In this document: positions 1-15,599 of the stretch, one piece after another | Numbering within the stretch: the stretch's first letter is position 1 | Layout of the letters: each line of letters starts with the position of its first letter | Source: Candidatus Omnitrophota bacterium | Lineage (GTDB): Bacteria; Omnitrophota; Gorgyraeia; 2-01-FULL-45-10 | Length of the DNA stretch: 32,000 nucleotides | Reading direction: 5' to 3' | Assembly: GCA_023818895.1 (NCBI GenBank) | Contig: JAMWCX010000002.1 | Span: forward strand, 330,001 to 362,000 | Made by a program: the position numbers and the translations under genes | The notes under the pieces: model-generated | Seen by the model: only the letters and a program-made list of their open reading frames with translations | What the model was told of the DNA's origin: nothing | Database searches by the model: none

Positions 1-3000
1 AAGGAAGTCCGCCTGGAGATCGGCTGACGCCACAAGGGCCTCATGTATATCCGCCATGTGCGAAAGCGCACCGGTAAAATCGCTCACGCCATAACTTCCG
101 CTATTGGCGACTATATAACTTGCCACGCCTGATAAGATAGCGCGGTAATTGTCGCTCTGGACCGAGGCGGTCGTGTCAGGAGTCACGCCATAGACAGTGT
201 TGAAATCGGCCCTCAAACTGGCATCCGCCAGAAGCGCCTGGTGTATGTCCACTATGTATGGCACTCCGTTAAGTATATCAGTGACGGTAATTCCTGGATT
301 AGCGAGAACATAAGCTCCGATGCCGGAAAGAACAGTCCTATAATCTTCACTGGTGACGGTGGCCGTGGTGTCAGCCGTCGTGTTATACGCGATGTTGAAA
401 TCCGCCCTCAGGCCCGGATCGGCCAGAAGCGCGGCATGTATATCCTGCATATAAGGAATGGCACCCAAAATATCATCTATAGTGGTGCCGGCGTTGGCCA
501 GTATGTAACTGGCTATGCCAGAGAGCGCGTAGCGGTAGTTTTCGCCGGTTATATTGGCTGTGGTGTCGGCCGTTACACTATATATAACCTCAAAGTCCAC
601 TCTCAAAGCGGCATCCGCAAGAAGCGCCGCGTGTAGATCGGCCATGATGGGAAGCGCGTCCAGAAGATCGGAGGTCGTAAGGCCATTATCCAGAATATAG
701 GCAGCCATTCCGGCGAGCGCGTAGCGGTAAGATTCTGTTGTAACATTTGCTGTAGTATCAGCGACGACATTATACACAACGGTGAAGTCCGCCTGAAGAT
801 CGGCATCGGCAAGAAGGGCCGCGTGCAGATCCGCCATTACTGGTATCGCATTAAGTATATCGTTAGCAGTCAGCCCCTCGTCGAGAACATAGCTTGCGAT
901 GCCTGAAAGGGCATAGCGATATGCCTCGGTAGTGACGTTTGCGCCTGAGTCGGCTATAGTATTATAGACAGTATTAAAGTCGGCTCTTAAGCCGGCGTCG
1001 GCAACCAGGGCCTGATGGATATCGGCCATGATGGGTATGGCGCTCAGGATATCATTTATTGTCATAGGAGGATTGTCTAAAACATAGCTTGCGATCCCAG
1101 AAAGTGCGTAGCGGTAAGATTCGGTGGTCACGGATGGTGTAGTATCCGCGGTGACGTTATATACGACGTTGAAGTCCGCGCGCAAAGACGCATCCGCAAG
1201 AAGCGCGGCGTGTATATCTGCCATCGGCGTCAGTGCGCCGACAAAGTCGCCTACCGTATAGCCGGCGTTATCGAGGATATAATCAGCGGTGCCGGAAAGC
1301 AGATTCCTATAATTTTCGTTTGTCACAGGATCCTGGTTAGCCGGCGCTATGCCGTAAATAACCTCAAAATCATTCTGTATATCAGCTGACGCGGTGATGG
1401 CGGCGTCGAGGTCTGCCATGATGGGAAGCGCCTGCGTAAACCGCAGGACCGTGTAACCGGGTGTTGTCACGATGTAACGCGCAATACCGGAAAGCGCATT
1501 TGCATAATCAGGGTTATTTACCGGGTCCTGGTCGGCGACCGCTATGCCATATATAGTCTCGAAGTCAGCTTGAAGATCCGGATCCGCTGAAATAGCGGCG
1601 TGCAGATCATCTATAATAGGAAGGCTTGCCAGGAAGTCATTCACGGTCATCGGAGGATTCGCAAGAATGTAATTGGCCACACCCGAAAGTATATTACGAT
1701 AGTCAGCGTTCGTAACCGGGTCCTGGTCGGCGACCGCTATGCCGTAGACAGAGGCAAAATCCTCTCCCACCCCTGTAGGATCTGCGGCAAGCGCCTCGTG
1801 AAGATCGGCCATGAGCTCAAGCGCATCCATGAATATAGCTACGGTATATCCGGCGTTATTCAGGATAAAGCTCGCAATACCAGAAAGGTTAAAGCGGTAG
1901 GCATCATTCGTAATGGGATCCTGGTCGGCCGGCGCAATGCCGTATATTGTCTCGAAATCGGCCTGCAGAAGAGCATCTGCCTGGAGGGCTTCATGAACAT
2001 TTTCCATGACCGGTAACTCAGCGGTAAAATCTGCCACGCTATATGGCGGATTGTCAATAATGTAACTGGCCACACCAGAAAGGATATTGCGGTAGTCAGC
2101 ATTCGTAACCGGGTCTTGGTTGGCAACCTCTATACCGTATATCGTCTCAAAGGCACTCTGAACATTGATATCAGCGGAGATAGCTTCATCGAGATCCGCC
2201 ATTATTGGAAGAGCCGACACAAAATCGGACACCGTATATGTACCAGCGCTTCCCAATATATAACTTGCCACTCCGGAAAGAGCGTTTCTATAATTATCCG
2301 ATGTTACATTTGGCGTGGTATCAGGATCGACGCCGTATATGGCGTTGAAATCCGCTCTCAAAGTAGCGCTGGCGAGAAGCTCGGCATGAATATCCGCGAT
2401 ATAGGGAACGGCGTCAAGGATATCGTTAAAATCGAGCGAATTGGCCAGAGCGTAGCTTGCGATACCTGCCAGGACATTACGGTAACCGGTGCTTGTGACA
2501 TTCGGAGTAGTATCGGCTGTCGTATTATAAACTATATTGAAGTCAGCCCTTAAGGCAGGGTCGGCAAGTAAGGCTGCGTGGATATCCGCCATGATGGGAA
2601 GCGCGTCTAAAAGATCGGTGTATGTCATCGGAGGATTATCCAGCACATAGCTTGCCATTCCGGCTAAAGCGTAGCGATAGGATTCGGTGGTGACGTTAGG
2701 CGTGGTGTCCGCCGTGACGTTATTTATCGTCTCAAAGTCAGCCCTTAAGGCAGGGTCAGCAAGTAAGGCTGCGTGGATATCCGCCATGATGGGAACACTA
2801 TTAAGAAACGCGGCCGCTGTCATAGGCGGATGGCTTGCTATATAACTTGCGATGCCTGAGAGCGTAAAGCGGTAATCGTCGCTTGTCTCAGGGTCAGCTA
2901 CATATGTGACATTGTACATGCTCTCGAAGTCAGCTCTTAAGGCTGCGTTGGACGTCAGGCCTTCATGTAGATCAGCCATCGTGACAAGTTCGACTTTAAA

Positions 3001-3580
3001 GTCCTCTATATCGTATCCTATGGTATTAGACGCGATGTATCCTGCAATACCCTGTATAGTTGAAAGATAGTCAGGGTCGTTCATGTTGGCTTCGAGGACC
3101 TGATCGGCAACAGCTACGCCATAGATTAGCTCAAAATCCGCCCGCAGCGTCGGATACGCAACATCATCAAGCGCGTTGTGAACAGCCATGGCGCCGTTAA
3201 GGCCGGCGATGTATGTTGCAAGATTATAGCCTGTCCCGTTAACTACGCCTGCCAGCCAGCCGCGATATGCGGGGTTATTAACAGGGTTCTGGTTTATAGG
3301 AGCGTAGTTCGAAATAGCCGCGACTATACTTTGAAGCGAATTATCAATTATAGCCTGGTGAAGATCTGCGGATGCACCGAGCTCGTAAATAAAATCATCG
3401 ACAGTATAATAATCGGGCTTCGTATAGTCATCGTGTTCGGATATGTATCCTGCTATTCCGACAAGTATCGACATGTAGTCATTATTACTCAGCACCTGAT
3501 TTGAAACTGCGGTACCGTAAAGAATCTGGAAATCACTCTGAAGGCCATGCGCGATGATCTCTTCGTGTATCTCTATCGCA
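1..3580 (-). repeat. In-frame tandem coding repeat, unit 192-198 nt (64-66 aa), about 18 units in window, continuing past the left edge
   Basis: Recurring unit L(R/Q)ADF..(V/I)Y(N/G)....D..P.VT...YR..LSG(I/V)ASY(V/I)L.N....T..D.L.A.P(I/V)MAD(I/L)HAALLAD. Anchors such as gccatgatggg recur at about 641, 1025, 1417, 2589, 2784. A 60-nt stretch at 2541-2600 recurs at 2736-2795 with one mismatch (offset 195). The 28-nt ccgggtcctggtcggcgaccgctatgcc occurs at 1521-1548 and 1716-1743 (offset 195). Confidence 0.9.
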
Positions 3581-5976
3581 AGGACCGAGCCTGAACCGCC
3601 AGCGAGTATACCGGGCAGCGCAAGATCTCCGGCCGCGGTTATCGTGATATTGGTTATCCTGCCAGAGCCATCTGTAGTGACTGTAATATAGCCGTCCGTA
3701 ACCCATTCATTGCGAAGATTATCGTTGGTAAAAAGCAAGATCGCCGCGTTGACTGCCGCTTCAGCCCCTATTCCGTAACCATTGAACTTACCGACAAGGT
3801 AATCGAGCACGGCAAAGGCGGTCTGACCATAAGTGGTAACGCTGATAGCATCCGCGCCTATAGCGGCATCCCGAAGACCGGTAGCAAACATCTTCTGTAA
3901 ATAGACATAAATTCTGTCCTGGATAGCAAATCCACTTGCCGAATACGTATGGTTATCGATAACGAGGTTCGGCATAAGAGCCTCAAACATGGTACCTTCC
4001 CATGATGGTATATAGTGGAAGGTGTCGCTTCCTATCGTATAGTCGTAAACGCCGTTAGACGGAATCTGGGCCTGCCATGTCCAGTCTTCCGGATAAGCGG
4101 TGACCATCCTGTCCCATAACGCCGCGGGGATGGTGCTGCCTGTCTTACCTATGGCAATAAGAATTGTCGGGCGTATTTCGGTATATATATTTCCATAATA
4201 GGATGTTGTAAGAGTGCTTGTATCCGGATCAGCACCTGTGGCAAGAAGTCCCGCTGTGGTATTATATAAACTGTTAAAATTCATAGCATTGAAAAGCGCG
4301 TCAGCGTTTGTCCTGATAGCGCCTCCATATGCCTGCCGAACGACAAGCAACGCCGAGGCAAGCCAGCCATTATCGACTGTAGATATGAACTTTTCGCTTG
4401 CGGTAGAGGCAGAGGGCGGGTTGGTTGTAAAACTGTAATAATTATGGAAAAGACCGTTCCACTTGTCGAGAGTAGCCAGTGTTGCCAGGCAGTTAGTAAT
4501 ACGAGTTTGGGCGGTAGCACTGTCGATCAGGTTAAGCTCATCCGCCGCTACCACGCTCATTAGATACAGAGCTATGTCTGTTATAGAGGTATAATTGGCA
4601 ACGCTTCCTGCCGCGGTGCGCCTGTCCGGCGGAAGCCAATAGGTGCCCGCGTTAGTCGTGTCAGCGAAATAATTCCATGTGCTCTGCGCGTAACCCAAAA
4701 GCGTCGCTTTTTGAAGATCTGTAAGAGCCGAGGTATCAAGCTGCGCGCCGGTAGGGTCGGTCAGTATACCAGAATAAGCCTTGTTAAGTCTTCCTCTTGA
4801 AATAATAAGTGGGTTACTACCCATGAAATAGTCCTGTATGCATCCATTATTAAGGGCATTTGCAATGGACACGAGGATACATCCCTGCGACAGAGTAAGA
4901 TACACTTGAGCCACGTCATTATTAGTCGCGTTGACGGAATCGAGAAAACCATAAGTGCCGGTCATGCCGGATATGCCGCTTAAGTCGCCAATATTAGCCA
5001 TCGCCTCGGCCGGCGCAACGTCAAGAGCCAGGAAACTCGCATATGGTGTTACAACGCCTGATTCATTCAGGATCCACGCGCCGTGGCTCATACCGAGCGG
5101 CGCGTAATAATCACGATATGTCGAATCATCGGAAGGATCAGTACACGAGGACATTCCCCATACACTCAGGCCCTGCGAAGAGGTATTTATATTGATGACA
5201 CCTTCGGCCACAAGAGCTTCCCTTAGACTCGCATCGCCAAAAAGCTGAAGGGCTATGCGCTCAGCCGCCCACTGATCCAAACTTGCGGCCATCATCGCCT
5301 GTATGAGATTATACATATCGCCGGCTGCGACGTGGCCGTATTCTGTAAGGTTAACGTCCGTTATCACGCTACCGGATAAGGTGGTTGTGATAAAACGGGC
5401 ATCGAGCCATAGCTGGCGAAAAGCGGGATCAGTGAAGATAAAGTCTGCATATGCGTCATCAGTCCCATTATTGGGTATTCCGGCCGCCGCAAGTTCATCG
5501 GCGAATGAGACCATATTCGGTATGGCTATATTGCCGTTTGCGGTTATCGTTATCTGTGTAGGGTCATTTGTGTCATTTGACGGCTGTATAGAGAGGTATC
5601 CGGCGCTCGCCCAGCGTATGCGTTTCGCGTCGTCATAGTATAAGTATTCGCCTATGTAGCTTCCCATTCCTATGGCGCTCAGCTGATTTGCTAGCCTTAC
5701 AAGCATGTCATAGACCGCGACGCGGCCGTATGCGGTAAGGGTCCATGTCAAAGCGCCGTCAGATACTATGAAACCGGCGTTCTGCCAGTTTGTCCTGGCT
5801 CCGGCATCGTTAAAAATCGCCCATGCCCAATAATCGGCAAGATATGTCGGGTCTCCAGCAGGAATACCCGCCGCAATAAGCTCTTGCCTAAAAGACTCTT
5901 GGTCAGCAAGCGCCGCATGGGTTGTAACCATTACAAACAACATCACAAGACACACCAAACCGACTATTTTTTTCAT
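1..5976 (-). CDS. Giant secreted protein, 3' end beyond window (at least 1,992 aa): signal peptide, duplicated small N-terminal modules, (alpha/alpha)6 glycoside-hydrolase-like region, then tandem 64-66-aa repeats
   Basis: Not in the supplied ORF track. Reading plus-strand triplets in register with position 1, none of tta/cta/tca (minus-strand stops) occurs in 1..5976. ATG at 5976-5974, GGAGGG at 5985-5990. N-terminus MKKIVGLVCLVMLFVMVTTHAALADQESF looks like a signal peptide. Motif blocks: PLGMSHGAWILNESGVVTPY (5041-5100); TYGFLDSVN..YLTLSQGCILVSIA (4861-4980); YTSITDIALYLMSVVAADELNLI (4501-4620); TVDNGWLASALLVV (4321-4380); SWEGTMFEALMPNLV (3961-4020). All track ORFs in 241..5638 lie in other frames. 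Confidence 0.85.
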   Translation of the reverse strand, partial: MKKIVGLVCLVMLFVMVTTHAALADQESFRQELIAAGIPAGDPTYLADYWAWAIFNDAGARTNWQNAGFIVSDGALTWTLTAYGRVAVYDMLVRLANQLSAIGMGSYIGEYLYYDDAKRIRWASAGYLSIQPSNDTNDPTQITITANGNIAIPNMVSFADELAAAGIPNNGTDDAYADFIFTDPAFRQLWLDARFITTTLSGSVITDVNLTEYGHVAAGDMYNLIQAMMAASLDQWAAERIALQLFGDASLREALVAEGVININTSSQGLSVWGMSSCTDPSDDSTYRDYYAPLGMSHGAWILNESGVVTPYASFLALDVAPAEAMANIGDLSGISGMTGTYGFLDSVNATNNDVAQVYLTLSQGCILVSIANALNNGCIQDYFMGSNPLIISRGRLNKAYSGILTDPTGAQLDTSALTDLQKATLLGYAQSTWNYFADTTNAGTYWLPPDRRTAAGSVANYTSITDIALYLMSVVAADELNLIDSATAQTRITNCLATLATLDKWNGLFHNYYSFTTNPPSASTASEKFISTVDNGWLASALLVVRQAYGGAIRTNADALFNAMNFNSLYNTTAGLLATGADPDTSTLTTSYYGNIYTEIRPTILIAIGKTGSTIPAALWDRMVTAYPEDWTWQAQIPSNGVYDYTIGSDTFHYIPSWEGTMFEALMPNLVIDNHTYSASGFAIQDRIYVYLQKMFATGLRDAAIGADAISVTTYGQTAFAVLDYLVGKFNGYGIGAEAAVNAAILLFTNDNLRNEWVTDGYITVTTDGSGRITNITITAAGDLALPGILAGGSGSVLAIEIHEEIIAHGLQSDFQILYGTAVSNQVLSNNDYMSILVGIAGYISEHDDYTKPDYYTVDDFIYELGASADLHQAIIDNSLQSIVAAISNYAPINQNPVNNPAYRGWLAGVVNGTGYNLATYIAGLNGAMAVHNALDDVAYPTLRADFELIYGVAVADQVLEANMNDPDYLSTIQGIAGYIASNTIGYDIEDFKVELVTMADLHEGLTSNAALRADFESMYNVTYVADPETSDDYRFTLSGIASYIASHPPMTAAAFLNSVPIMADIHAALLADPALRADFETINNVTADTTPNVTTESYRYALAGMASYVLDNPPMTYTDLLDALPIMADIHAALLADPALRADFNIVYNTTADTTPNVTSTGYRNVLAGIASYALANSLDFNDILDAVPYIADIHAELLASATLRADFNAIYGVDPDTTPNVTSDNYRNALSGVASYILGSAGTYTVSDFVSALPIMADLDEAISADINVQSAFETIYGIEVANQDPVTNADYRNILSGVASYIIDNPPYSVADFTAELPVMENVHEALQADALLQADFETIYGIAPADQDPITNDAYRFNLSGIASFILNNAGYTVAIFMDALELMADLHEALAADPTGVGEDFASVYGIAVADQDPVTNADYRNILSGVANYILANPPMTVNDFLASLPIIDDLHAAISADPDLQADFETIYGIAVADQDPVNNPDYANALSGIARYIVTTPGYTVLRFTQALPIMADLDAAITASADIQNDFEVIYGIAPANQDPVTNENYRNLLSGTADYILDNAGYTVGDFVGALTPMADIHAALLADASLRADFNVVYNVTADTTPSVTTESYRYALSGIASYVLDNPPMTINDILSAIPIMADIHQALVADAGLRADFNTVYNTIADSGANVTTEAYRYALSGIASYVLDEGLTANDILNAIPVMADLHAALLADADLQADFTVVYNVVADTTANVTTESYRYALAGMAAYILDNGLTTSDLLDALPIMADLHAALLADAALRVDFEVIYSVTADTTANITGENYRYALSGIASYILANAGTTIDDILGAIPYMQDIHAALLADPGLRADFNIAYNTTADTTATVTSEDYRTVLSGIGAYVLANPGITVTDILNGVPYIVDIHQALLADASLRADFNTVYGVTPDTTASVQSDNYRAILSGVASYIVANSGSYGVSDFTGALSHMADIHEALVASADLQADFL

Positions 5977-6046
5977 TTTAGCAACCCTCCAAAGTTTATC
6001 CGATTGTTTTGACGCAAGGTAGGAAATTGTTTTCGAAAATATTTTC

Positions 6047-6094
6047 ATAAATTAAAAGCCTGGTCACCTACTTTTCAGCTTCGGTAACCAGGCT
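6047..6094 (-). terminator. Intrinsic terminator-like hairpin inside the leader of the giant gene
   Basis: Minus strand: AGCCTGGTTACC (6094-6083), 14-nt loop, GGTGACCAGGCT (6068-6057). This gives a 12-bp stem with one G-U pair, followed by TTTAATTTAT. It lies about 80 nt upstream of the ATG at 5976 and about 250 nt downstream of the preceding gene's stop. Confidence 0.6.
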
Positions 6095-6164
6095 GTCTAA
6101 AACTATATTAGACCCTTGGCTTTGCCGTGAACCAGAACTCACTTTGCTCGTTAGGTTCACGATC
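6078..6164 (-). promoter_or_regulatory. Candidate c-di-GMP-I (GEMM-I)-like riboswitch aptamer in the 5' leader of the giant gene
   Basis: Minus strand: GAUCGUGAACCUAACGAGCAAAGUGAGUUCUGGUUCACGGCAAAGCCAAGGGUCUAAUAUAGUUUUAGACAGCCUGGUUACCGAAGC. From memory, the Vc2 GEMM-I blocks are GGCAAAC, a 16-nt hairpin, ACGCAAAGCC, a long hairpin, then AGC..GGUUACCGA. Here the blocks are GCAAAG, a 16-nt hairpin GUGAG[UUCUGG]UUCAC, ACGGCAAAGCC (one extra G), a hairpin CCAAGGGUCUAA/UUAGACAGCCUGG, then GGUUACCGAAG. The 3' part (6081-6100) overlaps the terminator 5' arm. No covariance-model search was run. Confidence 0.4.
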
Positions 6165-6251: not shown

Positions 6252-6279
6252 AGTTTACTATAAAAAATTATTTTGTCAA
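6252..6279 (-). promoter_or_regulatory. Sigma70-like promoter for the giant gene leader
   Basis: Minus strand: TTGACA (6279-6274), 16-nt spacer, TAAACT (6257-6252), in an AT-rich intergenic region. Confidence 0.4.
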
Positions 6280-6347: not shown

Positions 6348-7463
6348 TTATTTTTCCAGCCAGATCTCAGGATGTTTATGATAGGAAATAACAAATGCTT
6401 CGACGACTTTTGGATCAAACTGAGTCGAGGATGCCTCCCTTATCCTGTCAAAAGCCGCTTCCTTTGAAAGCCCTTTCTGATAAGGCCTGTCTGTGGTAAG
6501 GGCGTCGAATGTATCGGCGACTGCTATTATCCTCCCTTCAAGGGAGATGGCATTTCCTTTGAGATGATGAGGGTAACCATTCCCGTCAAAGCGCTCATGG
6601 TGTTCCAGCACCCCCCTTATTATCTTATGAGAATCGTCTATCGACTCTATTATCCTTGCGCCTATACCTGGATGCATCTTTATCTGCCTGCGCTCATAAC
6701 CCAAGAGCTTTGCCGGTTTCATAAGAATACTTTCCTTAACGCCTATCTTCCCTATATCGTGCAGTATGCTCGCCAACCTCAGATTCTCAAGGGTCTCCTC
6801 ATCAAGATTGAGTTCCTGACCTATGGCAACAGCATATTTCATGACACGCTCAGAATGGCCGCTCGTGTACGCGTCTTTGGCATCTATAGCCCTGGCAAGC
6901 GATGTCACAGTGCTTATAAAGAGGTTCTTAAGGCGATGGTACAACTTAGCGTTGAGGAGCGCTATGGCTATATTATTTGAAAGCGCCTCCAATAGTTCTT
7001 TATCTTCTTCCGTGAAGAGGTGCCCCGGCCTTTTACGGTTGCTCACTATAAGTATTCCTATAATCTTACCTTCCACCTCGAGAGGGACGGCAAGAAAAGA
7101 GTGTATAGGCAGTTCTATATCAGCAAATGGCAGCTTCTTCCCTTTGAAAAGAAAGTTATCACGTATATCATTAACTATAAGCGGCTCTTTGCTTTTTATG
7201 ACATTCTCGTTTATAATCTCCCAGCTTCCCAGGAGATTTATATTGTCGAGCTCATCCGCGCTAAAACCTTTCGCCTTTGTCAGCATCAGCTTCCTGATGG
7301 TTTCATCCATCAGGAATAGCGAGGCATGGTCCGCGCCAAGCGCTTTTGACGACTGGTCGAGGACAATCTCGCTTACCTTTTCGAGATCAAGGGACGAGCT
7401 TATCTCACGACTTACCTGCAGGAGTATTTTCGCGGCTTCGTATTTGCGTGTGTTTTCCGTCAT
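6348..7463 (-). CDS. GAF domain + HD-GYP domain protein (predicted c-di-GMP phosphodiesterase)
   Basis: C-terminal motifs HSERV, ILHDIGKIGV, HHERFDGNGYP and VADTFDALTTDRPY define HD-GYP. The N-terminal ~170 aa is GAF-like. The ATG overlaps the upstream stop (ATGA at 7460-7463). Confidence 0.88.
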   Translation of the reverse strand: MTENTRKYEAAKILLQVSREISSSLDLEKVSEIVLDQSSKALGADHASLFLMDETIRKLMLTKAKGFSADELDNINLLGSWEIINENVIKSKEPLIVNDIRDNFLFKGKKLPFADIELPIHSFLAVPLEVEGKIIGILIVSNRKRPGHLFTEEDKELLEALSNNIAIALLNAKLYHRLKNLFISTVTSLARAIDAKDAYTSGHSERVMKYAVAIGQELNLDEETLENLRLASILHDIGKIGVKESILMKPAKLLGYERRQIKMHPGIGARIIESIDDSHKIIRGVLEHHERFDGNGYPHHLKGNAISLEGRIIAVADTFDALTTDRPYQKGLSKEAAFDRIREASSTQFDPKVVEAFVISYHKHPEIWLEK

Positions 7464-9373
7464 AAAACCTTTACCACTATTATCGTCATGTCATCGTGCT
7501 GTTGGGACTTTGGCTCGAACCGGCGCACATCGCGTTCTATCGTCTCCAGGAGCTTTCTCGCGGAAAGACCTCTGTTCTTAAGAGCAACTGCCTGTAGGCG
7601 CTCTTTACCGTACATATCGGAGTGACGATTCATCGCCTCGGTGATGCCATCTGTATAGTATATGAAGATATCGCCCTTTTCAAAGGCGACGCTGCTCGCG
7701 GAATACTCGCCTTCCATAAGGCCTAGCGGTGATCCTTCCTCGACATCGAGGAAACGGCTGCTTCCATCCCCCGCGATGTAAAGAACAGGAAGGTGTCCTC
7801 CATTACCATATACCATAGTTTTGGCTCTCACGTCAAATATAGAATAGTAGACTGTAACAAACAGGTTCGAAGTTGATTCTCTTATAAGTTTTGAATTGAG
7901 GCTCGACAATACTTCCTGCGGATTTTTCCCGGGAAGCGCAAAAGACCGAAAATCACCGACGACCATTGCCATGAAAAGGGCTGCGGGAACGCCTTTGCCG
8001 GAAACGTCGCCTATCATTATGCCGAATCGATCCTCGCCGAAAGACGTAAAGTCATATAGATCCCCTCCGACCTGGCGGGCCGTAAACATGGCCGCCGCTA
8101 CATCCATTCCCTCAATTGAAGGCATTACCTTAGGCAAGAAACTTTCTTGTATTTTCTTGGCTATCTGAAGCTCGCTCTCCATTAGAAGTCTTTTCTTCCA
8201 CTCCCTCACGTACTTGTATAGGGTAAGCGCTATGTGAAGAATCACCCCTACTACCAGCGGATAGATAAGGTCTATCCATAAGCCTGTCAGATTGAAAAGC
8301 AATATGCCGCTCGTGATAAAAATAGTCATTATGCCAACTAGCATGAAAAAACCTTTAAGAGGTCTTGTCTTAAGGACAAGGACCGACATGAGCGAAGATA
8401 GCACAATGAGTATCATAAGGTTCGTGCCACGTGATGCCCTCGCTATGAAATTTCTTTTTACAATGGAATTGAAGACATCGGCGTGCATGCCCATGGCGGG
8501 ATAAAGTGCGTCAAATGGATTAGGATGCAGATCAACCGTCCCCACAGCGGTCAGGCCGATTATGCAAACCTTGCCCCTTAACTTGCCCAAGTCGATATTT
8601 GGCACCTCCCCTGTCACTTTGGCTAGATAGGATTGCAATACATCCACAAACGAATAGTGGCGGTATGAACGGCCCCATGGAGCGGAGAAATTCACTATTA
8701 TATTGGAGTGTTCGTCAAGCGGAATCTTCACGCCACCAAGATCCACGTAACTTCCTAGCACAAACTTGACATCCTTCTGCGATATGCCCAGATGATCGCA
8801 GGCGAAAAGAAGCGACAGATACGGTTGAAGAAGATACCCCTCGTACTTAATATAAGCCGGCACGCGACGGAATTTTCCGTCTACATCGGGCACGACATTG
8901 ATATGGCCAACCCCCTTAGATACGCTGTTTAAAACCTCAAGGTTTCTGGCGGCTATGCCAGATGCGTAAGGCACCTTGCGTCTGCCGGGCTCGATATCAA
9001 ATACTACCGGGAAATAAACGTTGCCGGCCTTCTTTACGGCATCAACGAACTCCGCGTCGCTCTTCATCGGCTCGCTGAAGAAAATATCGAATACTATCGC
9101 TTTAGCCCCGGCCTCGGATAGCGCTTTTACAAGCAGCGCATGATAGCTCCTGTCAAATGGGAAGCGGCCTATCTTTTCGACGGTATCGTCGCTTACCTCG
9201 ATCATAACAACTTTGTCAGTGGTTGGTATCTGCGGGCGCGCTCTAAATCTGAGATCTAGCGTTTCGAGTTCATAGCTGTCGAGGATGTGGAAGTAGGAGC
9301 CGGCCATGATGGCCAGGCACCCAACCAGACCTGCCAACGCGACAAGTATCTTGTTAAGGGCTTTTATCTTCAT
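7460..9373 (-). CDS. CHASE2 sensor domain + PP2C/SpoIIE-type serine phosphatase (RsbU-like)
   Basis: N-terminal TM segment, then a periplasmic region with the CHASE2 signature IGRFPFDRSYHALLVKALSEAGAKAIVFDIFFSEP, then three TM helices. The cytoplasmic SpoIIE/PP2C part carries IAKKIQESFLP, GGDLYDF, GDVSGKGVPAALFMA and TDGITEA. The start codon directly abuts the upstream gene's stop (TAG-ATG at 9376-9371). Confidence 0.88.
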   Translation of the reverse strand: MKIKALNKILVALAGLVGCLAIMAGSYFHILDSYELETLDLRFRARPQIPTTDKVVMIEVSDDTVEKIGRFPFDRSYHALLVKALSEAGAKAIVFDIFFSEPMKSDAEFVDAVKKAGNVYFPVVFDIEPGRRKVPYASGIAARNLEVLNSVSKGVGHINVVPDVDGKFRRVPAYIKYEGYLLQPYLSLLFACDHLGISQKDVKFVLGSYVDLGGVKIPLDEHSNIIVNFSAPWGRSYRHYSFVDVLQSYLAKVTGEVPNIDLGKLRGKVCIIGLTAVGTVDLHPNPFDALYPAMGMHADVFNSIVKRNFIARASRGTNLMILIVLSSLMSVLVLKTRPLKGFFMLVGIMTIFITSGILLFNLTGLWIDLIYPLVVGVILHIALTLYKYVREWKKRLLMESELQIAKKIQESFLPKVMPSIEGMDVAAAMFTARQVGGDLYDFTSFGEDRFGIMIGDVSGKGVPAALFMAMVVGDFRSFALPGKNPQEVLSSLNSKLIRESTSNLFVTVYYSIFDVRAKTMVYGNGGHLPVLYIAGDGSSRFLDVEEGSPLGLMEGEYSASSVAFEKGDIFIYYTDGITEAMNRHSDMYGKERLQAVALKNRGLSARKLLETIERDVRRFEPKSQQHDDMTIIVVKVL

Positions 9374-10432
9374 CTAAAAAAAGTAGCTGAGGCCGCCGGA
9401 ATACATAGTGTCAACGTACCTTTCTAAAGGTTCGTTGGTATGGTTTTCGGAATGTGAATAATTCACGAAGGCGGAAAGATTATCTGTCATGTCGTATATA
9501 AGCGAACCTGTGACGATATAAAGGTTGTCCCTTTGCAGCGCTTCACTGTCGCTCACCTGGCGCTCATAATAGTTACGGCGCTGATAATAAAAACCGGCGG
9601 TGCCAAAAAGCCTCTTTGAAAGAATCGCGGTCAAGGCGCACCCTGTCCTATTGGCCCAGTAATCGTAGTAATCCATGTATTGGTAGTTCGATTCATTGAC
9701 GTAGTAGTCGTTAAGAACACGCAGCTTGACTTTCTTGCCTATGTATATGCCCAGCTCATACCTGCAGGTATTTCTGAGATCGGCCCTGAGTTCAGAGCTC
9801 AGCGTATAATTACTTAAGCGTACCTTTCTGTCGAAGTAGCTTCGATATTCGAGGCGATACATCGCCCGTTGATATAGCCATTTTGTTACCGTGTGCTTTA
9901 AGGATACGACAAAGGAATTGCCTAAGTAATTTCCTTCCCTGTTATGAGGATACCACATGGACTCGAAAACATAGCCCGCGCTAAAGTCCAAATCCTTGGC
10001 GATGTTATGGTCTAAATACACATCGGCTACGCCGTCAAATATGTTGACGTCTGTTACACGAAAATAGTTAACGTTTAGCGCGTTCACACCAAACCTGACA
10101 TCGGTCTTGCCAAGGCTTTCTGCAACAAGCGGATACTTGAAATGGAGATCGAACATCTCCTGTGTATAATTATCTGCTTTGTGAGTGGAGTCCAGAAGGG
10201 GGTTGGAATCTACTCCTTGGGTAACACTTGTGGTTATCTCCACTTTAAGAAGCTCTTTGGAAGGTTTTTTGGCCGGCGGGGAAACCGGCACTTTGGGAGC
10301 AGCGTATAAGTATTTTTTTATGTCCTGGTCTTCTACGGTCTTGACATCGGCACGAGAATGAATAGCTGTAAAAGTTGTAAAGAAAATCACTAAAAGCGTT
10401 GTACAAAATATCTTGCAGGATCCTTCCTCCAT
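9374..10432 (-). CDS. Predicted outer-membrane beta-barrel protein, family not recognised
   Basis: Hydrophobic N-terminal signal-like segment. Y/N/G-rich alternating pattern throughout. C-terminus ...YSGGLSYFF ends in an aromatic residue, typical of OMP beta-barrels. Confidence 0.6.
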   Translation of the reverse strand: MEEGSCKIFCTTLLVIFFTTFTAIHSRADVKTVEDQDIKKYLYAAPKVPVSPPAKKPSKELLKVEITTSVTQGVDSNPLLDSTHKADNYTQEMFDLHFKYPLVAESLGKTDVRFGVNALNVNYFRVTDVNIFDGVADVYLDHNIAKDLDFSAGYVFESMWYPHNREGNYLGNSFVVSLKHTVTKWLYQRAMYRLEYRSYFDRKVRLSNYTLSSELRADLRNTCRYELGIYIGKKVKLRVLNDYYVNESNYQYMDYYDYWANRTGCALTAILSKRLFGTAGFYYQRRNYYERQVSDSEALQRDNLYIVTGSLIYDMTDNLSAFVNYSHSENHTNEPLERYVDTMYSGGLSYFF

Positions 10433-10479
10433 CCTCTTTTGCCTTTTATACCCTTCTTAAAAACTTTTTCGAGATAAAA

Positions 10480-11514
10480 TCATTCTCCTTTATTAATTGT
10501 ACCGCCTGAAGTATCACCTGAGATGCCGCTTGCGTCTGAAACCGATGTGGTTTTCGATTCTATCGGCTCTCTCGCCTCTTCTTTCGCGGCTATCTGCGAT
10601 ATATCACGGGTCTCCTGTATATCCTGCTTCTTGGCTTCAAGCCTTTCGATCTGCGTCTCTTCTTTCGCTATGCGGTCCAACCTTGAATACGACCTATCTA
10701 TCGTGGATTCCGCTTGTTCTATAATAGATTGTGTCTTCTCGATGGTCCTTCCCGCTCTTTCCTCTATAGCGCCAGCGGTCTTTTCCGCTCTTTCTTCAGC
10801 CGCGCTTTCAGTCGGGGTTTCAATTCTTTTTTCTGTCGCCTTTTCCGGAGTCGAAGTGGCGGCTTCTTTCGCTATTTCCGGCGAGCGGCCTATAACCTCT
10901 TGCCTGAAACCGTTCCATCTGTCGATATCAGCGCGCGAAATCTGTTCGAGTCTCTCCGGCCTTTCGAACTTGTCAACCACAGCGCGGAATCCTTCGCTTA
11001 CTGTAAGCTCTCCTTCCATTACGCTGCCATCCCTATTGATGCCCTTGACATAAATAGCGTTCTCGTAAGAACTAAATATAGCCGTTTCTCCATCAGTCTT
11101 GCTGCCCCACCCTGTACCGCGAGCGCCGCTTATTCCGGCAGGCGTTCTTATCTCGAAGCTCGAGCCTTTAGGGATATTCCTCATCAAGGCAAGCACTTCT
11201 CCGTTCAGAAGTTCAATACTGCATGGCGTCTTCCCATGCACTATAACCACGTCAGAATTCTCCGCTATGCCAATGACGTTAGTCTTATCGGCCAGAAACA
11301 CTATATCAACGGCCTCATTCGCGGCTGTCCTTATCCTGTCCCCGTTCGAAACAGCCATCGCTGGCGCGCAGCTTATCCAGCTGCCTGAATCTCTTTTCAT
11401 TATTTTGGGGCTACCTCTTACGGACATGATTTCAGGCGAGGCGTCTTGCGCGAACGTAAGCGTGTAGGACACGAAGGTCAACACCGCTGTTATAAAAATT
11501 ATCTTAAGTCGCAT
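10480..11514 (-). CDS. Secreted FecR-domain protein with E/K/R/T-rich low-complexity C-terminal tail
   Basis: Signal peptide MRLKIIFITAVLTFVSYTLTFAQD. FecR-like core (..W..C.....VSNGDRIRTAANEAVDIVF...ELLNGEVLAL.....FEIRTPAGISGARGTGW). C-terminal ~140 aa is charged and probably coiled or disordered (EKRIETPTESAAEERAEKTAGAIEERAGRTIEKTQ...). Confidence 0.75.
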   Translation of the reverse strand: MRLKIIFITAVLTFVSYTLTFAQDASPEIMSVRGSPKIMKRDSGSWISCAPAMAVSNGDRIRTAANEAVDIVFLADKTNVIGIAENSDVVIVHGKTPCSIELLNGEVLALMRNIPKGSSFEIRTPAGISGARGTGWGSKTDGETAIFSSYENAIYVKGINRDGSVMEGELTVSEGFRAVVDKFERPERLEQISRADIDRWNGFRQEVIGRSPEIAKEAATSTPEKATEKRIETPTESAAEERAEKTAGAIEERAGRTIEKTQSIIEQAESTIDRSYSRLDRIAKEETQIERLEAKKQDIQETRDISQIAAKEEAREPIESKTTSVSDASGISGDTSGGTINKGE

Positions 11515-11565
11515 AATCTCTCCTTTTTTAGCCTACCTAAAGTGTTCCTAATTTTCCACCATTAC

Positions 11566-12189
11566 TTAATCTTTTCCCTTTATCAAAAGCTTCCAGGGAT
11601 GCGCTTTAAGGTCCTGACTGAAATCCTTGAAATTAATAGCGGTCTGCTCTATATTCATCATTATGCTGTCCAGGCGCGGCCTGTTATCTGTAACCGCTCC
11701 GTTGATATTTTCGGCGAGGTTCTTTATCTGGCCAAGCGTTTTATCCAGGGCATCCGCTATAGCATCGGCCTTCTTCCAGAATTTTCTGACCTCGACTGGG
11801 TCCTCGCTTGCCACCGTACCACCATTTTTAATAAACGGTTTATCCGCAGACCCAGGCGTAAGCCCAACATAAGCGTCGCCTATCATGCCAGAGGTGGCTA
11901 TGAACGCTATCGCGTCCTCATGGACTTTGAAGGCCGGTTTTACAGCAAGCTCCAGCATTATCTTTGTTTCGGGTTCGTACTTGAAACCTATCTTGGTGAC
12001 ACGGCCAACCTCTATGCCGGCTAACTTCACGATGGCATCCTCCTTGATTCCGTCGGCGTGATTGAAATAGGTATATATCTTGTAAGGGGCGCCGGTAGTG
12101 CCGGTGGTCTTAATATAAAAAATCATGGTTGCAAGTATCGCGGCAACGACTACTATGCCGGTCTTGACCTCGTTAGTAAGGATCTTCAT
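11566..12189 (-). CDS. mlaD: MCE/MlaD-family substrate-binding protein of an Mla-like ABC transporter
   Basis: N-terminal TM anchor followed by an MCE domain (YKIYTYFNHADGIKEDAIVKLAGIEVGRVTKI). Sits directly downstream of the mlaF/mlaE homologues. Confidence 0.85.
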   Translation of the reverse strand: MKILTNEVKTGIVVVAAILATMIFYIKTTGTTGAPYKIYTYFNHADGIKEDAIVKLAGIEVGRVTKIGFKYEPETKIMLELAVKPAFKVHEDAIAFIATSGMIGDAYVGLTPGSADKPFIKNGGTVASEDPVEVRKFWKKADAIADALDKTLGQIKNLAENINGAVTDNRPRLDSIMMNIEQTAINFKDFSQDLKAHPWKLLIKGKD

Positions 12190-12236
12190 GCGTTATCTCC
12201 TTTCCCTCACTGAATTATTTTTATCAAAACACAAAT

Positions 12237-13049
12237 TCACGCTACAAGCGTCTCCAGATAATCATCCTTCTGCTGGAAAAATTTTATAGGGCCATCGGGT
12301 GATCCATTTATGAACTGTTGAACCATCTCATTCTTGGAATGCCTTATTTCATCTGGCGTACCAACCTCAAGAACCCTGCCTTCGTAAAGCATAGCCACTC
12401 TGTCAGCTATAGAGAACACGCTTTTCATATCATGCGTTACCACAACGGATGTTATGTTAAGCTTTTTGGAAAGATCGAGTATCAGCTTATCTATGACACC
12501 GGCGACGATAGGGTCGAGACCGGCTGTAGGCTCATCATAGAAGACTATCTCGGGATCCATCGCTATGGCGCGCGCAAGTCCGACTCTTTTTTTCATACCG
12601 CCAGAAAGCTGGCTCGGCATCAGGTCCTCAAATCCTCTTAAACCAACGAGCTCCAGCTTCATTTTAACTACTATGTCCCGCACGCTTTTATCAAGTTTTG
12701 TGTGCTCTTTAAGCCCCAGCGCGACATTCTCGCCGACTGTCATGGAATCGAAAAGGGCGGACGACTGAAAAGACATACCTATTTTGCGCCTTAAGTGGTC
12801 CATCTCATCATCGTTAAGGGTGCTAAGATCCTTGCCCAAAAGATATATCTTTCCGGAATCGGGTTTGAGCGATCCGATGATGTGACGCAGGAAAGTCGAT
12901 TTTCCGCATCCGGAGCCTCCCATAATGACAAAGGTTTCGCCTTTGTAGATCTCAAGGCTGATACCATTCAATACCGTCCTGCCGCCGAATTTCTTAACTA
13001 CGTTGTCTGCTTTTATCACTACCTCTTTTTCGGATTCTTTCGGATTCAT
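12237..13049 (-). CDS. mlaF: ABC transporter ATP-binding protein, MlaF-like
   Basis: Walker A GGSGCGKST, signature LSGGMKKRVGLARAIA, Walker B IVFYDEPTAGLD, H-loop VVVTHD. Confidence 0.9.
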   Translation of the reverse strand: MNPKESEKEVVIKADNVVKKFGGRTVLNGISLEIYKGETFVIMGGSGCGKSTFLRHIIGSLKPDSGKIYLLGKDLSTLNDDEMDHLRRKIGMSFQSSALFDSMTVGENVALGLKEHTKLDKSVRDIVVKMKLELVGLRGFEDLMPSQLSGGMKKRVGLARAIAMDPEIVFYDEPTAGLDPIVAGVIDKLILDLSKKLNITSVVVTHDMKSVFSIADRVAMLYEGRVLEVGTPDEIRHSKNEMVQQFINGSPDGPIKFFQQKDDYLETLVA

Positions 13050-13050
13050 A

Positions 13051-13893
13051 TCATTTCCCTGCGAAATAAAATACGCCTGTTAGTATACAATCAAAAAGTA
13101 TTATAAGTATAAAGCTTGTCACAACCGAAAGCGTTGTGGACTTACCCACTCCCTCCGCGCCGCCTTTTGTGTTCAAGCCCATGTAACAGCCGATCATAGA
13201 TATGATAAGGGCAAAGGTCCCGCTCTTGACTAGCCCTGTCCACACATCTTTCCATGCCATATATTTGAACGAAAAAGTAATGTAGCGGTAGGGATCGAGA
13301 TCGAGACTGAAAACACCTACGAGGAATCCTCCGAATATTCCAACTAAATCCGCCAGTATCGTAAGACAGGGGAGCATTACAAGAAGCGCAAGAAAGCGCG
13401 GTATGACAAGAAATCTGATGGGGTTCAGCGCCATTGTCTCCAGCGCCTCTATCTGCTCGCTTACCTTCATCGTGCCAAGTTCGGCGGCTATGGCGGCGCC
13501 GACGCGGCCTGTGACGACAAGAGCTGTGAGAACGGGCCCCAGCTCTCTGGCCAAGCTTATCGCGACCATAGGGGCAACATATATATTAGCCCCGAATCTC
13601 GAAAGCTGGTATGCCGATTGCATCGCTATGACGATGCCGGTAAAGAAGGCAACAAACATCGCTATGACGAGCGATCCCACGCCGGCAAATACCATCTGAT
13701 GAAATATGCTGTCGCTTTTTACAAATTTATTTTTCAGCGGGCCGAATATCAGCCACCATATAGTGTCAAAAAGAAGACCTAAGACTTCGACGGTTCCCTT
13801 CCATGCGCCCAATACTACGCTTCCTATCTTGGCAAAAAAGTTTACTATCACCGTTACCCCCATCAATGCCTTATGCGAAAGTGGAGATGGCAT
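13051..13893 (-). CDS. mlaE: ABC transporter permease, MlaE-like
   Basis: Multi-TM protein with the MlaE/TtgB-type block GAAIAAELGTMKVSEQIEALETMALNPIRFLVIPRFLA. The alternative ATG at 13863 would remove the 23-nt overlap with the STAS gene. Confidence 0.88.
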   Translation of the reverse strand: MPSPLSHKALMGVTVIVNFFAKIGSVVLGAWKGTVEVLGLLFDTIWWLIFGPLKNKFVKSDSIFHQMVFAGVGSLVIAMFVAFFTGIVIAMQSAYQLSRFGANIYVAPMVAISLARELGPVLTALVVTGRVGAAIAAELGTMKVSEQIEALETMALNPIRFLVIPRFLALLVMLPCLTILADLVGIFGGFLVGVFSLDLDPYRYITFSFKYMAWKDVWTGLVKSGTFALIISMIGCYMGLNTKGGAEGVGKSTTLSVVTSFILIILFDCILTGVFYFAGK

Positions 13894-14206
13894 CCTGCTC
13901 GTCGGCCATTATTTCGAATAGCTTCTCCAACTTGGTTATCTCGAAAAGGCTCTTTATTTTGGAAGACAGGTTCGTGAGCCTAAGGCGGCCGCCGTAAGAA
14001 CGCATATTCTTGAGTATCTCCACGAGCGTCGCAAGCCCTGATGAATCAACATAAGTCACTTTGGAAAGATTAACAACTATCTTAGGCGTCTTGGATGATA
14101 TCAGCTTATCAAACACCTTCTTTATAGACGGGCTCGAATTTATATCGATCTCGCCCTCCACGTAGCATACCGTTAATCCGTTTTTGTTCTCGATCTTCAC
14201 CGCCAT
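13871..14206 (-). CDS. STAS-domain protein (anti-sigma-factor antagonist type, SpoIIAA/RsbV-like)
   Basis: 111 aa. Carries the conserved phospho-acceptor context VTYVDSSGLATLV. AAGGAG RBS upstream of the ATG at 14206. Confidence 0.85.
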   Translation of the reverse strand: MAVKIENKNGLTVCYVEGEIDINSSPSIKKVFDKLISSKTPKIVVNLSKVTYVDSSGLATLVEILKNMRSYGGRLRLTNLSSKIKSLFEITKLEKLFEIMADEQDAISTFA

Positions 14207-14227
14207 AGCTATGTCTCCTTTTCCCCT

Positions 14228-14692
14228 TTATTTAAGATTCTTCACCATCGTTATCCTTCTGCCGCCAGCCGTGTATTCGACCTTGTCCATAAGCTTCTTT
14301 ATAAGATAGACTCCCCTGCCGGAGTTCTTAAATATATGCGCTTCACTTGTGGGGTCCACAAGCTTCGACTGGTCAAACCCTTTACCTTCATCTTCTATCT
14401 CGATGTGGAGGTTGTCATCCTCGACCCAGGAGGCGATCTTTACCAAACGGCGCCTGTCGCAATTATTGCCGTGGACGATCGCATTCCTAACGGCCTCTTC
14501 TATGCACAGCTTTATATCAAAGATTTTGCCTTCATCGAGCACATAATCCACTATTTTTGACAACACAGCATTCGACACCTTTCTTATAAACCGTGTCTCG
14601 CTCGGGATCTTTAGCTCAGTCCTTCTGCTTGCCTCTTTATGGTTCTTTAAAAATCCCAATGGCCCTAATCTTATCATATCGAGCGTCCACAA
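14228..14692 (-). CDS. RsbW/SpoIIAB-like serine protein kinase (HATPase_c anti-sigma-factor type)
   Basis: N-box EEAVRNAIVHGN, G1 EIEDEGKGFD, G2 NSGRGVYLIKKLMD. The track start at 14692 is a TTG inside accA, so the start is uncertain. The in-frame ATG is at 14677. Confidence 0.8.
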   Translation of the reverse strand: MWTLDMIRLGPLGFLKNHKEASRRTELKIPSETRFIRKVSNAVLSKIVDYVLDEGKIFDIKLCIEEAVRNAIVHGNNCDRRRLVKIASWVEDDNLHIEIEDEGKGFDQSKLVDPTSEAHIFKNSGRGVYLIKKLMDKVEYTAGGRRITMVKNLK

Positions 14693-15599
14693 GTTTGTCT
14701 TTGGAGATATTTTTTAGACCTGCGAGATCCTTTTTTATAGTCTTTTTTATATTCTCGGCCGCCTCATGGGGATCCCGGTGGGCTCCACCGAGCGGCTCTT
14801 TGATTATACCATCAATGATCTTCATTTCAAGAAGATCCTTGGCGGTAAGCTTTAGAGCGGCGGCCGCTTCAGGAGATTTAGAACGCTCCTTCCAAAGTAT
14901 CGCGGCGCATCCCTCCGGAGATATTACCGAATAATACGCGTTCTCAAGAACGTACACCCTGTCTCCCACCCCTATACCAAGAGCGCCGCCGGAGCCGCCT
15001 TCACCTATCACAAAAACTATTATCGGCACCCTCAAATGCGCCATCTCTCTAAGATTATAGGCTATCGCCTCAGCCTGTCCGCGCTCCTCCGCGCCGATAC
15101 CTGGATACGCGCCCGGCGTGTCGATGAAGGTAACTATGGGCAGGTCAAACTTCTCGGCCATGTACATTACCCTCATGGCCTTTCTATATCCTTCCGGATT
15201 GGCACAGCCGAAATTCCTCTCCAGGTTCTCCTTGGTATCCTTGCCCTTTTGATGACCTATTACGACTATCTTCTCCCCGTTCAGCTTTGCCAGCCCGCAT
15301 ACCATGGCCTTGTCATCAGAAAAATGCCTGTCGCCGTGTATCTCGATGAAATCGGTCATCATCATCTCGATATAATCCAGCGTGTAAGGCCTTTTGGGAT
15401 GACGAGCTATCTGGACCCTTTGCCAGGGGGTGAGGTTATCGTAGACATCCTTTTTTATCTGGGCCAGCTTCTCTTCGAGATGTCTTATCTCTCCGGAGAT
15501 ATCAATATCCTTGTGGGATGTAAAACCCTTGAGTTCCTCTATCTTACGCTCAAGGTCTATTATAGGCTTTTCGAATTCGAGTCCAGGAATAGCCGCCAT
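14637..15599 (-). CDS. accA: Acetyl-CoA carboxylase carboxyltransferase alpha subunit
   Basis: Full-length AccA-like sequence: LTPWQRVQIARHPKRPYTLDYI, FIDTPGAYPGIGAEERGQAEAIA, GEGGSGGALGIGVGD. Confidence 0.93.
   Translation of the reverse strand: MAAIPGLEFEKPIIDLERKIEELKGFTSHKDIDISGEIRHLEEKLAQIKKDVYDNLTPWQRVQIARHPKRPYTLDYIEMMMTDFIEIHGDRHFSDDKAMVCGLAKLNGEKIVVIGHQKGKDTKENLERNFGCANPEGYRKAMRVMYMAEKFDLPIVTFIDTPGAYPGIGAEERGQAEAIAYNLREMAHLRVPIIVFVIGEGGSGGALGIGVGDRVYVLENAYYSVISPEGCAAILWKERSKSPEAAAALKLTAKDLLEMKIIDGIIKEPLGGAHRDPHEAAENIKKTIKKDLAGLKNISKDKLVDARYDKIRAIGIFKEP

Follow-up and report, generated by a model that had tools for sequence, protein, structure and literature searches.

Rod-forming tandem repeats of three helices are known from giant surface proteins, with the spectrin repeats and the 126-amino-acid FIVAR-GA super-repeat of the Staphylococcus aureus protein Ebh as examples. 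The Omnitrophota are abundant, mostly uncultured and very small bacteria. Their long surface proteins are believed to be the basis of a host-dependent or predatory way of life, and a large part of this protein sequence is unannotated. Here we analyse an array of tandem helical units in P0001, a secreted multidomain protein of 2947 amino acids from a Candidatus Omnitrophota bacterium. Its gene lies at one end of a stretch of 32,000 nucleotides (assembly GCA_023818895.1, contig JAMWCX010000002.1, positions 330,001 to 362,000), which as a whole is referred to as the window. The unit represents a new repeat family that appears confined to this phylum; its general kind, the helical tandem repeat of long secreted proteins, is a familiar one.

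With spectrin and Ebh, the P0001 array shares tandem three-helix units in which the last helix is continuous with the first helix of the following unit, two mostly alternating unit types (a super-repeat of ~125 amino acids in relatives of P0001), a location in very long secreted proteins, and a variable copy number. It differs from them in that neither a match to their Pfam families at E <= 10 nor a Foldseek similarity to PDB chains was obtained, and in that the Omnitrophota unit possesses a conserved 12-residue loop with a near-invariant Gln and appears restricted to one phylum.

A survey of long Omnitrophota proteins describes a tandem-repeat scaffold class of secreted proteins that consist largely of copies of a single domain, in which the tandem signal has dissolved at the nucleotide level and the protein repeats persist (bioRxiv 10.64898/2026.06.07.730766). 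P0001 likewise carries no tandem signal of the unit period in its DNA, and with its 2947 amino acids it is far shorter than the giants of that survey. Since the survey classifies by Pfam, and the P0001 unit has no Pfam model, this unit falls into the survey's dark-matter fraction (bioRxiv 10.64898/2026.06.07.730766).

The repeat unit and its distribution

The repeat gene is read on the minus strand as a single, uninterrupted frame of 5976 bases that begins with the ATG at 5976 and exits the window at its left end (base 1). The 1992 residues encoded in the window are 100% identical to the first 1992 residues of P0001, which is encoded on a 442-kb contig and recorded as 'MAG: DUF3131 domain-containing protein [Candidatus Omnitrophica bacterium]' (MAG, metagenome-assembled genome). 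Anchored on the motif L(R/Q)xDF, the units start at residues 812, 878, 944, 1013, 1077, 1142, 1206, 1272, 1337, 1403, 1468, 1533, 1598, 1663, 1727, 1791, 1856, 1921 and 1987. Eighteen of them (u1 to u18) are complete in the window (Table 1), and hmmsearch with a profile of these 18 units found 24 stretches in P0001 (amino acids 812-2343). The array extends past the window to this number of units, and the alternation of unit types in relatives and the run of 16 X units described below are invisible from the window alone. The first-pass annotation of this DNA had proposed about 18 tandem units of 64-66 amino acids, helical in appearance and free of Cys; count, length and consensus were correct, its block boundaries were right within a few bases, and its outer limit at 3580 agrees with the cap helix 'LAIEIHEEIIAHG' (~3544-3588) that precedes u1. 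Equivalent cap helices can be read in the sequences ahead of the arrays of P0002, P0003, P0039, P0041, P0049 and P0051.

In the relatives P0002, P0003 and P0039 there is for the most part an alternation of two unit types: X units of ~62-66 amino acids ('MYxVxxxDQ...GIAxYI') and Y units of ~58 amino acids ('SGIxVxDQ...YRGYLAGVVNG'). The P0001 array opens with X-Y-X (u1-u3), continues with 16 X units in succession (u4-u19), and alternates again from u20 to u24. In a neighbour-joining tree, u1 and u3 fall with the X units, and u2 with the Y units, of P0002, P0003 and P0039. The first two units had been read as degenerate in the first pass; u1-u3 are instead of the usual types, and they fold confidently in the models described next.

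In the first of two independent AlphaFold2 runs, u13-u16 were modelled from 16 aligned rows of four-unit blocks kept in register and received a predicted local distance difference test (pLDDT) score of 95.9 and a predicted template modelling (pTM) score of 0.88; for u1-u4, which comprise X and Y units, the values were 93.8 and 0.85. Both models show the same three-helix pattern in every unit: a helix 1 of 8-11 residues, a 12-residue loop, a helix 2 of 16 residues (11 in the Y unit), and a helix 3 of 20 residues (17 in the Y unit), with one non-helical residue between helix 3 and the following helix 1. As helix 3 passes almost directly into the next helix 1, the units are predicted to concatenate into a continuous elongated array. 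Foldseek searches with both models against 350,542 PDB chains gave best E values of 0.21 and 0.83 with template modelling (TM) scores <= 0.26, and against BFVD a best E of 0.94, again with no TM score above 0.26, so no viral analogue was found there. None of the solved helical-repeat folds, ARM/HEAT, TPR, TAL, spectrin and Ebh among them, thus aligned significantly with the models.

Over 137 units, the family consensus reads L-R-x-x-F-x-x-I-Y-G-I-x-V-A-D-Q-x(4)-N-x-x-Y-R-x-x-L-x-G-I-A-x-Y-I ... Y-x(4)-F-x(3)-L-x(5)-L-H-x-A-L. Strongly conserved are L1, R2, F5, Y9, G10, I11, Q16, N21, Y24, L28, G30, I31, A32, Y34, Y41, F46, L50, L56, H57, A59 and L60. The helices bear hydrophobic i/i+3/i+4 stripes (F5, I8, Y9; Y24, L28, I31, A32, I35; F46, L50, M53, H57, L60), and most other helix positions are nearly unconstrained, as in a structural scaffold. 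An aliphatic residue at position 46 occurs in none of the 99 units with Gly10 and in 11 units that all lack it, a count confounded by shared ancestry. This co-variation of Gly10 and an aromatic residue at position 46 suggests that helix 1, at its end, is in packing contact with the beginning of helix 3.

The X units of P0001 occur in two subtypes, A and B, and the difference between them is almost wholly one 12-residue loop. Between the subtypes the helices are 45-52% identical and the loop (positions 10-21) 12.6%, and within them loop identity reaches 67% (A) and 80% (B); the loop is the best-conserved segment in subtype B, and in A it is comparably conserved to the helices. In subtype B the family loop is retained together with its Gln16, a residue with 98% conservation among family units from proteins other than P0001. 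Subtype A carries 'ADTTxNVT' in place of this ancestral loop, and u7 and u18 combine Gly10 and Phe46, as in B, with the 'DTT' of A, giving at least three character states. Subtype A (u5, u6 and u13-u17) forms a clade with a bootstrap of 93%, u7 and u18 pair with 66%, and subtype B (u8-u12) is unsupported as a clade (11%). The first pass had assigned all of positions 1-1195 to subtype A, which holds for u13-u17 but not for u18, the partner of u7 with 62% identity to it. N-glycosylation sequons in the subtype-A loops were also counted; their enrichment (6 versus 2.7 +/- 1.4; 5 versus 3.5 +/- 1.7) was too weak to be kept as evidence.

When 1.84 billion representative proteins were searched in full with the unit profile (HMMER), 39 matched at E <= 0.001, a few of the weakest being partial and doubtful, and 24 at E <= 1e-10. 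The family has about 30-39 member clusters. All members with an organism name come from Candidatus Omnitrophica/Omnitrophota. Among 80 genome loci that encode the enzyme domain found N-terminal to the array, the repeats are present only in the two Omnitrophota loci (L002 and L003), as well as in L001, the contig of P0003; the remaining loci belong to Bacillota, Ktedonobacter, Planctomycetes and others. Across the family the repeat is combined with RHS/YD repeats, FG-GAP repeats or a Glycoamylase/DUF3131 domain, and most complete members begin with signal-peptide-like N-termini. The unit thus appears to be a rare, previously uncatalogued alpha-helical tandem-repeat domain that is apparently restricted to Omnitrophota.

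Array length and the c-di-GMP riboswitch

The window and L001 have a common gene order, purH, folC-like, mnmE, folE, DUF212, LysM-YkuD, accA and the repeat gene, which makes P0001 and P0003 positional orthologues. Copy number, which the first-pass annotation had suggested comparing between related genomes, does vary: 24 units in P0001 stand against 8 in P0003 and 9 in P0002, and L003 encodes at least 9 up to the end of its contig. The orthologue of MAG GCA_018823705.1 is seemingly split across the end of JAHJHP010000050.1 (L002) and the start of JAHJHP010000051.1 (L096), and the split point coincides with near-identical units (P0050 u2-u3 versus P0040 u1-u2). A gene broken at near-identical units suggests a recent unit duplication, and a break in the assembly, in this lineage.

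A more distant homologue, in L004 (open reading frame 8675-15556), has only one helical unit (13.4 bits) and, by motif pattern, at least 14 copies of a different module, 'VLFTDxDARxxW...ITV...GIVNLTN'. This expansion sits between the enzyme domain and FG-GAP-like repeats, as the helical array does in P0001. With a different module expanded at the same position, length seems to matter more than module identity, and two unrelated modules expanded at one position are what would be expected of a length-setting linker.

The 5' leader of the repeat gene contains an aptamer of the c-di-GMP-I (GEMM-I) riboswitch class, which senses cyclic di-GMP (c-di-GMP; Table 1). The same Rfam family, RF01051, was found in the orthologue leaders of L001, L002 and L082 (39.3-40.5 bits), the L003 leader has a match to the same Rfam clan below its gathering score (30.1 bits versus 59), and the riboswitch family also precedes the repeat-poor L004 homologue. 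None was found ahead of the non-orthologous P0039 and P0051, and for this reason the riboswitch goes with the enzyme-bearing orthologue group, L004 included, and not with the repeat. Downstream of the aptamer lies a candidate terminator hairpin whose 5' arm overlaps the 3' strand of the aptamer; a simple terminator scan, which considered loops of 3-8 nucleotides only, reported no site at 6052-6100. Since the hairpin uses the aptamer 3' strand, ligand binding should block its formation and permit read-through, so that the element is probably an ON switch. Such a polarity would fit a protein of the surface or the attachment phase.

The gene directly upstream encodes a GAF sensor and an HD-GYP-type domain with intact HD and GYP motifs and is likely a c-di-GMP phosphodiesterase adjoining the c-di-GMP riboswitch. 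An aptamer above the gathering score, a predicted competing hairpin and an adjacent HD-GYP gene liken the locus to surface and adhesion genes under c-di-GMP-I riboswitches. Our literature search found nothing linking this riboswitch class or c-di-GMP to Omnitrophota surface proteins. Elsewhere, a c-di-GMP-I-GGC variant riboswitch (RF03167, 64.8 bits) is located at 18054-18127 (+) of L018, a Planctomycetales MAG, ~7 kb downstream of an enzyme-domain homologue.

Stalk, binding surface or scaffold

The best-supported reading, to which we give about even chances, is an unbroken helical stalk made of these units, as long as their number dictates, in a secreted, enzyme-bearing surface protein that is induced by c-di-GMP. 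The 24-unit array, which has the beta-1,2-glucanase-like domain on its N-terminal side and the YD-like and FG-GAP-like repeats on its C-terminal side, would mainly be a stalk or spacer that sets the distance from the enzyme head to the C-terminal part, the latter presumably being proximal to the cell. Evolution would tune the length of the stalk through gain or loss of units, and the whole gene would be switched by c-di-GMP via the leader riboswitch. The data themselves show how the repeat is built, how rare the family is and where it occurs, the predicted secondary structure with its confidence, the differences in copy number, and a riboswitch that is present and conserved; that the array is a rod and a spacer, how the protein is oriented on the cell, and that the switch is of the ON type are inferences.

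Several points weigh against this stalk. The AlphaFold alignments consist of paralogous repeat blocks, which may inflate confidence for idealised helical repeats, and the continuous, rigid and elongated form of the array is a deduction that leaves room for a superhelix as well as a rod. Monophyly of the whole u4-u19 run is weakly supported (bootstrap 18%), and the claim of a run of X units consequently rests on unit type and not on the tree. Two members that carry the repeat, P0042 and P0046, are not obviously secreted: in P0042 (759 amino acids) an IS200-like Y1 transposase domain and a Pro-rich linker come before the repeat and a transmembrane helix comes after it, and P0046 (2287 amino acids), a giant protein with multiple membrane passes and a HEAT-repeat annotation, has the repeat at its C-terminus. 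Given these contexts, the repeat may not be exclusively extracellular. Lastly, the conservation of the loop and its near-complete replacement between subtypes A and B hint at a surface with a function of its own; the loop data do favour some loop-specific function, and stalk and binding roles could coexist.

Taken further, the loop leads to the foremost alternative, in which the units are multivalent binding modules for a glycan, the cell envelope or a prey surface, with the loop as recognition surface and a specificity of its own for each of the subtypes A and B. Instead of a passive spacer, the array would be the part of the enzyme that provides adhesion or targeting. We judge this to be somewhat unlikely. 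In its favour, the loop motif G-I-x-V-A-D-Q-D-x-x-T-N is strongly conserved, with Gln16 near-invariant outside P0001, the loop is conserved within each subtype and differs far more between them than the helices do, the repeat is associated with a glycoside-hydrolase-type domain, and the gene is under c-di-GMP control, as is common for adhesins. The conserved residues of the loop might, however, just as well serve to fasten it to the helices, and the co-variation of Gly10 and position 46 points to packing contacts. Moreover, nine units in which another residue stands in place of Gln16 show no decay, searches of Pfam and of PDB sequences and by Foldseek yielded nothing similar to known carbohydrate- or wall-binding modules, and L004 has a different module in the same position.

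A more specific form of this idea strikes us as rather improbable. Here, an ultrasmall Omnitrophota cell that depends on a host would use the array as a modular recognition surface switched by c-di-GMP, and the two loop versions, the ancestral 'ADQDPVTN' and the lineage-specific, Thr-rich 'ADTTxNVT' in a lysine-free array, would bind different envelope ligands or carry different modifications. If true, the array would keep the cell attached to its partner or prey as the beta-1,2-glucanase-like head attacks glucans of the periplasm or the capsule, and it would represent a new adhesin fold with cassette-like switching of specificity.

The composition of the array bears on a third possibility. 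Units u4-u24 are devoid of Cys, Trp and Lys over 1331 consecutive residues (amino acids 1013-2343), the whole array has no Cys, and it is strongly acidic with an isoelectric point of ~4; Lys amounts to 7.7% in the neighbouring proteins. Acidic, Lys-free rods might bundle or bind cations extracellularly and thereby form a self-associating scaffold, either a matrix or a surface layer, and c-di-GMP often controls matrix components. We hold this to be improbable to a slightly greater degree: the repeat regions of other family members are less extreme (0.9-4.9% Lys), and an enzyme head with a C-terminal repeat region resembles a single tethered molecule.

It is very unlikely that the units are divergent members of a described family, be it DUF6642, SLH, FIVAR, GA, DUF1542 or a spectrin-type repeat. 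The three-helix unit and the ~125-amino-acid X+Y super-repeat do recall the FIVAR-GA rod of Ebh, and DUF6642 (PF20347) sums to 29.3 bits over the window protein, above its cut-off of 27. This sum falls to 26.5 bits for full P0001 and 22.8 bits for three units, no single stretch is significant alone in the whole proteins, and the matches, which reflect a weak similarity to helices 2 and 3 of the unit, cover profile positions 45-92 of 182 (48 positions, about a quarter). In seven other members (P0039, P0041, P0042, P0043, P0048, P0049 and P0051), DUF6642 was not found at E <= 0.01, nor did any Pfam model lie over the repeats. As these are summed, weak partial matches that stay below the threshold on the full protein and are not shared by the seven relatives, we reject DUF6642 membership. 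The precomputed Pfam list for P0001 includes PF20347, on the basis of summed sub-threshold partial matches to many repeats; this label is probably a false family assignment that would spread by automated annotation. In Pfam hmmscan searches at E <= 10, a single unit had no match, and three-unit blocks of both subtypes gave noise apart from DUF6642; SLH, DUF4214, dockerin, RTX, RHS/YD, FIVAR, GA, DUF1542 and spectrin were all without a match. NCBIfam had no match to the units, nor did the unit profile match PDB sequences, and a literature search on DUF6642 and DUF3131 returned nothing relevant. With DUF6642 as a borderline case, the first-pass view of an unrecognised family therefore stands, and the Foldseek results point the same way.

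The age of the units can be read from their divergence. Protein identity between units ranges from 30 to 77%, and DNA identity among the 15 well-formed units u4-u18 from 44 to 70%; across the latter, identity is 65% at codon positions 1 and 2 and falls to 35% at position 3. With position 3 far more diverged than positions 1 and 2, the duplications are old and under purifying selection. Tandem Repeats Finder, run on window positions 1-6000, detected no array with the unit period of ~195 bp, since the units are too diverged at the DNA level, and reported only two short arrays with periods of 16 and 9. The stepwise amplification of two cassettes that the first pass had put forward is a fair description of the blocks and of the subtype-A clade; it is not borne out for subtype B, a third type formed by u7 and u18 lies between the two, and the process is ancient. 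The repeats are not due to chance, as the unit profile matches 20 units in the independent protein P0039 (E = 1.8e-183). The repeat region had no relatives in searches of genomes and metagenomes, which also turned up no independent assembly of the exact gene. The chance that faulty assembly produced the repeats, or that they are merely non-coding tandem DNA, is negligible. Nothing counted for it, although assembly problems do occur in the gene family, as at the P0050/P0040 break in another MAG; the units are too diverged in their DNA to mis-assemble, the frame stays open throughout, codon position 3 diverges far beyond the other two, and independent homologues exist.

Accompanying domains, neighbouring genes and meaning

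Judged from its Pfam and PDB matches, the domain N-terminal to the array is related to beta-1,2-glucan-active enzymes. It scores above the Pfam gathering thresholds for Glycoamylase, PF10091 (68.2 bits, cut-off 27), and DUF3131, PF11329 (33.3 bits, cut-off 20.3). Among solved structures it comes closest to the domain of cyclic beta-1,2-glucan synthase that carries out cyclisation (PDB 8wy1, E 1.1e-27; also 8rf9); the match to the GH144 endo-beta-1,2-glucanase 5gzh is weak. The likeness to GH144/GH189-type enzymes concerns this neighbouring domain and not the repeats, and homologues from outside Omnitrophota are without helical repeats. Relative to 8wy1, the order of segments looks circularly permuted (window ~3940-5120 (-), amino acids 286-679): residues 286-385 align with chain positions 452-556, and residues 428-679 with positions 19-411.

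A second module of ~60-70 amino acids without a Pfam match, 'LFTDxxxRxxWxxxGxITV...ITxT..G..A.P', occurs on either side of the enzyme domain, with a copy immediately ahead of the helical array. P0039 likewise begins with this module, and it is the one that L004 has expanded to at least 14 copies in the place of the helical units. C-terminal to the array and beyond the window, P0001 contains YD-like segments and ~10 repeats of the type 'DFGxxGLYKYSNNxWTKLS', and related repeats of P0051 match Pfam FG-GAP_3. P0001 ends in a conserved tail, 'LDVQN...AEGGYTLTSSLAGGP'. The tail pattern '(L/M)DVQ(N/D)...GYG..AEGG(F/Y)(T/S)(F/L)TS(A/S)LA' (P0001 amino acids ~2905-2947) recurs at the C-termini of P0002, P0003, P0040 and P0051 and is thus common to family proteins whose upstream domains differ; it has no hydrophobic anchor, no NCBIfam model matches it, and it may be a sorting or secretion signal.

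In comparison with the syntenic L001, the window has ~8 kb extra between accA and the repeat gene (~7460-14692 (-)). This stretch encodes an anti-sigma-type kinase, MlaE, an ABC ATPase, MlaD, a FecR-domain protein, a CHASE2-SpoIIE phosphatase, and a 352-amino-acid protein without a Pfam match (9374-10432). Plus-strand open reading frames at 241-636, 1600-2016 and 2116-2553 lie antisense inside the long repeat frame and are read as its shadows.

Table 1. Positions in the window of the repeat gene, its units and its leader elements.
Feature	Position	Strand	Basis or remark
Secreted multidomain protein, window part (amino acids 1-1992)	1..5976	-	Single open frame; 100% identity to P0001
Putative Sec-type signal peptide, MKKIVGLVCLVMLFVMVTTHAALA followed by DQE	5905..5976	-	Sequence reading
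Catalytic-type domain (Glycoamylase/GH144 family + DUF3131), approximate boundaries	3742..5169	-	Pfam and PDB matches
Second uncatalogued module, 'LLFTNDNLRNEWVTDGYITVT...ITITAAGDLALPG', one copy	3577..3714	-	Sequence reading; further copies at ~5197-5898
Cap helix 'VLAIEIHEEIIAHG' ahead of u1, resembles unit helix 3	3544..3588	-	Sequence reading
In-window array, 18 complete three-helix units u1-u18, 64-69 amino acids each	19..3543	-	Unit table, alignment, hmmsearch, AlphaFold
u1-u3, ancestral X-Y-X types as in orthologues	2941..3543	-	Neighbour-joining tree; u1-u4 model pLDDT 93.8
u1-u2	3148..3543	-	
u3	2941..3147	-	
u4-u6, derived X units, subtype A, loop 'YN(V/T)TADTTPNVT'; u4 divergent	2362..2940	-	
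u7, intermediate (hybrid) type: Gly10 and Phe46 as in B, 'DTT' loop as in A	2164..2361	-	
u8-u12, subtype B, ancestral family loop 'YGIAVADQDPVTN' retained	1186..2163	-	
u13-u17, subtype A	217..1185	-	Clade bootstrap 93%; u13-u16 model pLDDT 95.9
u18, intermediate type, sister of u7	19..216	-	62% identity to u7; bootstrap 66%
u19, first six codons (LQADFL)	1..18	-	u19-u24 continue beyond the window
c-di-GMP-I riboswitch aptamer RF01051, 5' leader	6080..6158	-	40.6 bits versus gathering score 35; 104 nt upstream of ATG
Candidate terminator/expression platform: hairpin, then U-rich tract	6052..6100	-	-25.7 kcal/mol, z = -6.6
Promoter-like site TTGACA-16-TAAACT	6252..6279	-	10/12 consensus positions; consensus scan only
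Upstream gene, GAF + HD-GYP-type domain	6348..7463	-	PF13487 HD_5 134 bits + GAF; HDIGK and GNGYP motifs intact

Metagenomic proteins often turn out to contain new helical repeats, and what the array does is deduced here, so that the value of these findings is moderate. They define a dark repeat family through its consensus, its members and a confident three-helix model without a solved analogue, they show that the length of the array changes between positional orthologues, and they link the gene to a c-di-GMP riboswitch. The conserved riboswitch, the replacement of the loop and the lysine-free composition raise the interest of this family among the long surface proteins of the Omnitrophota.

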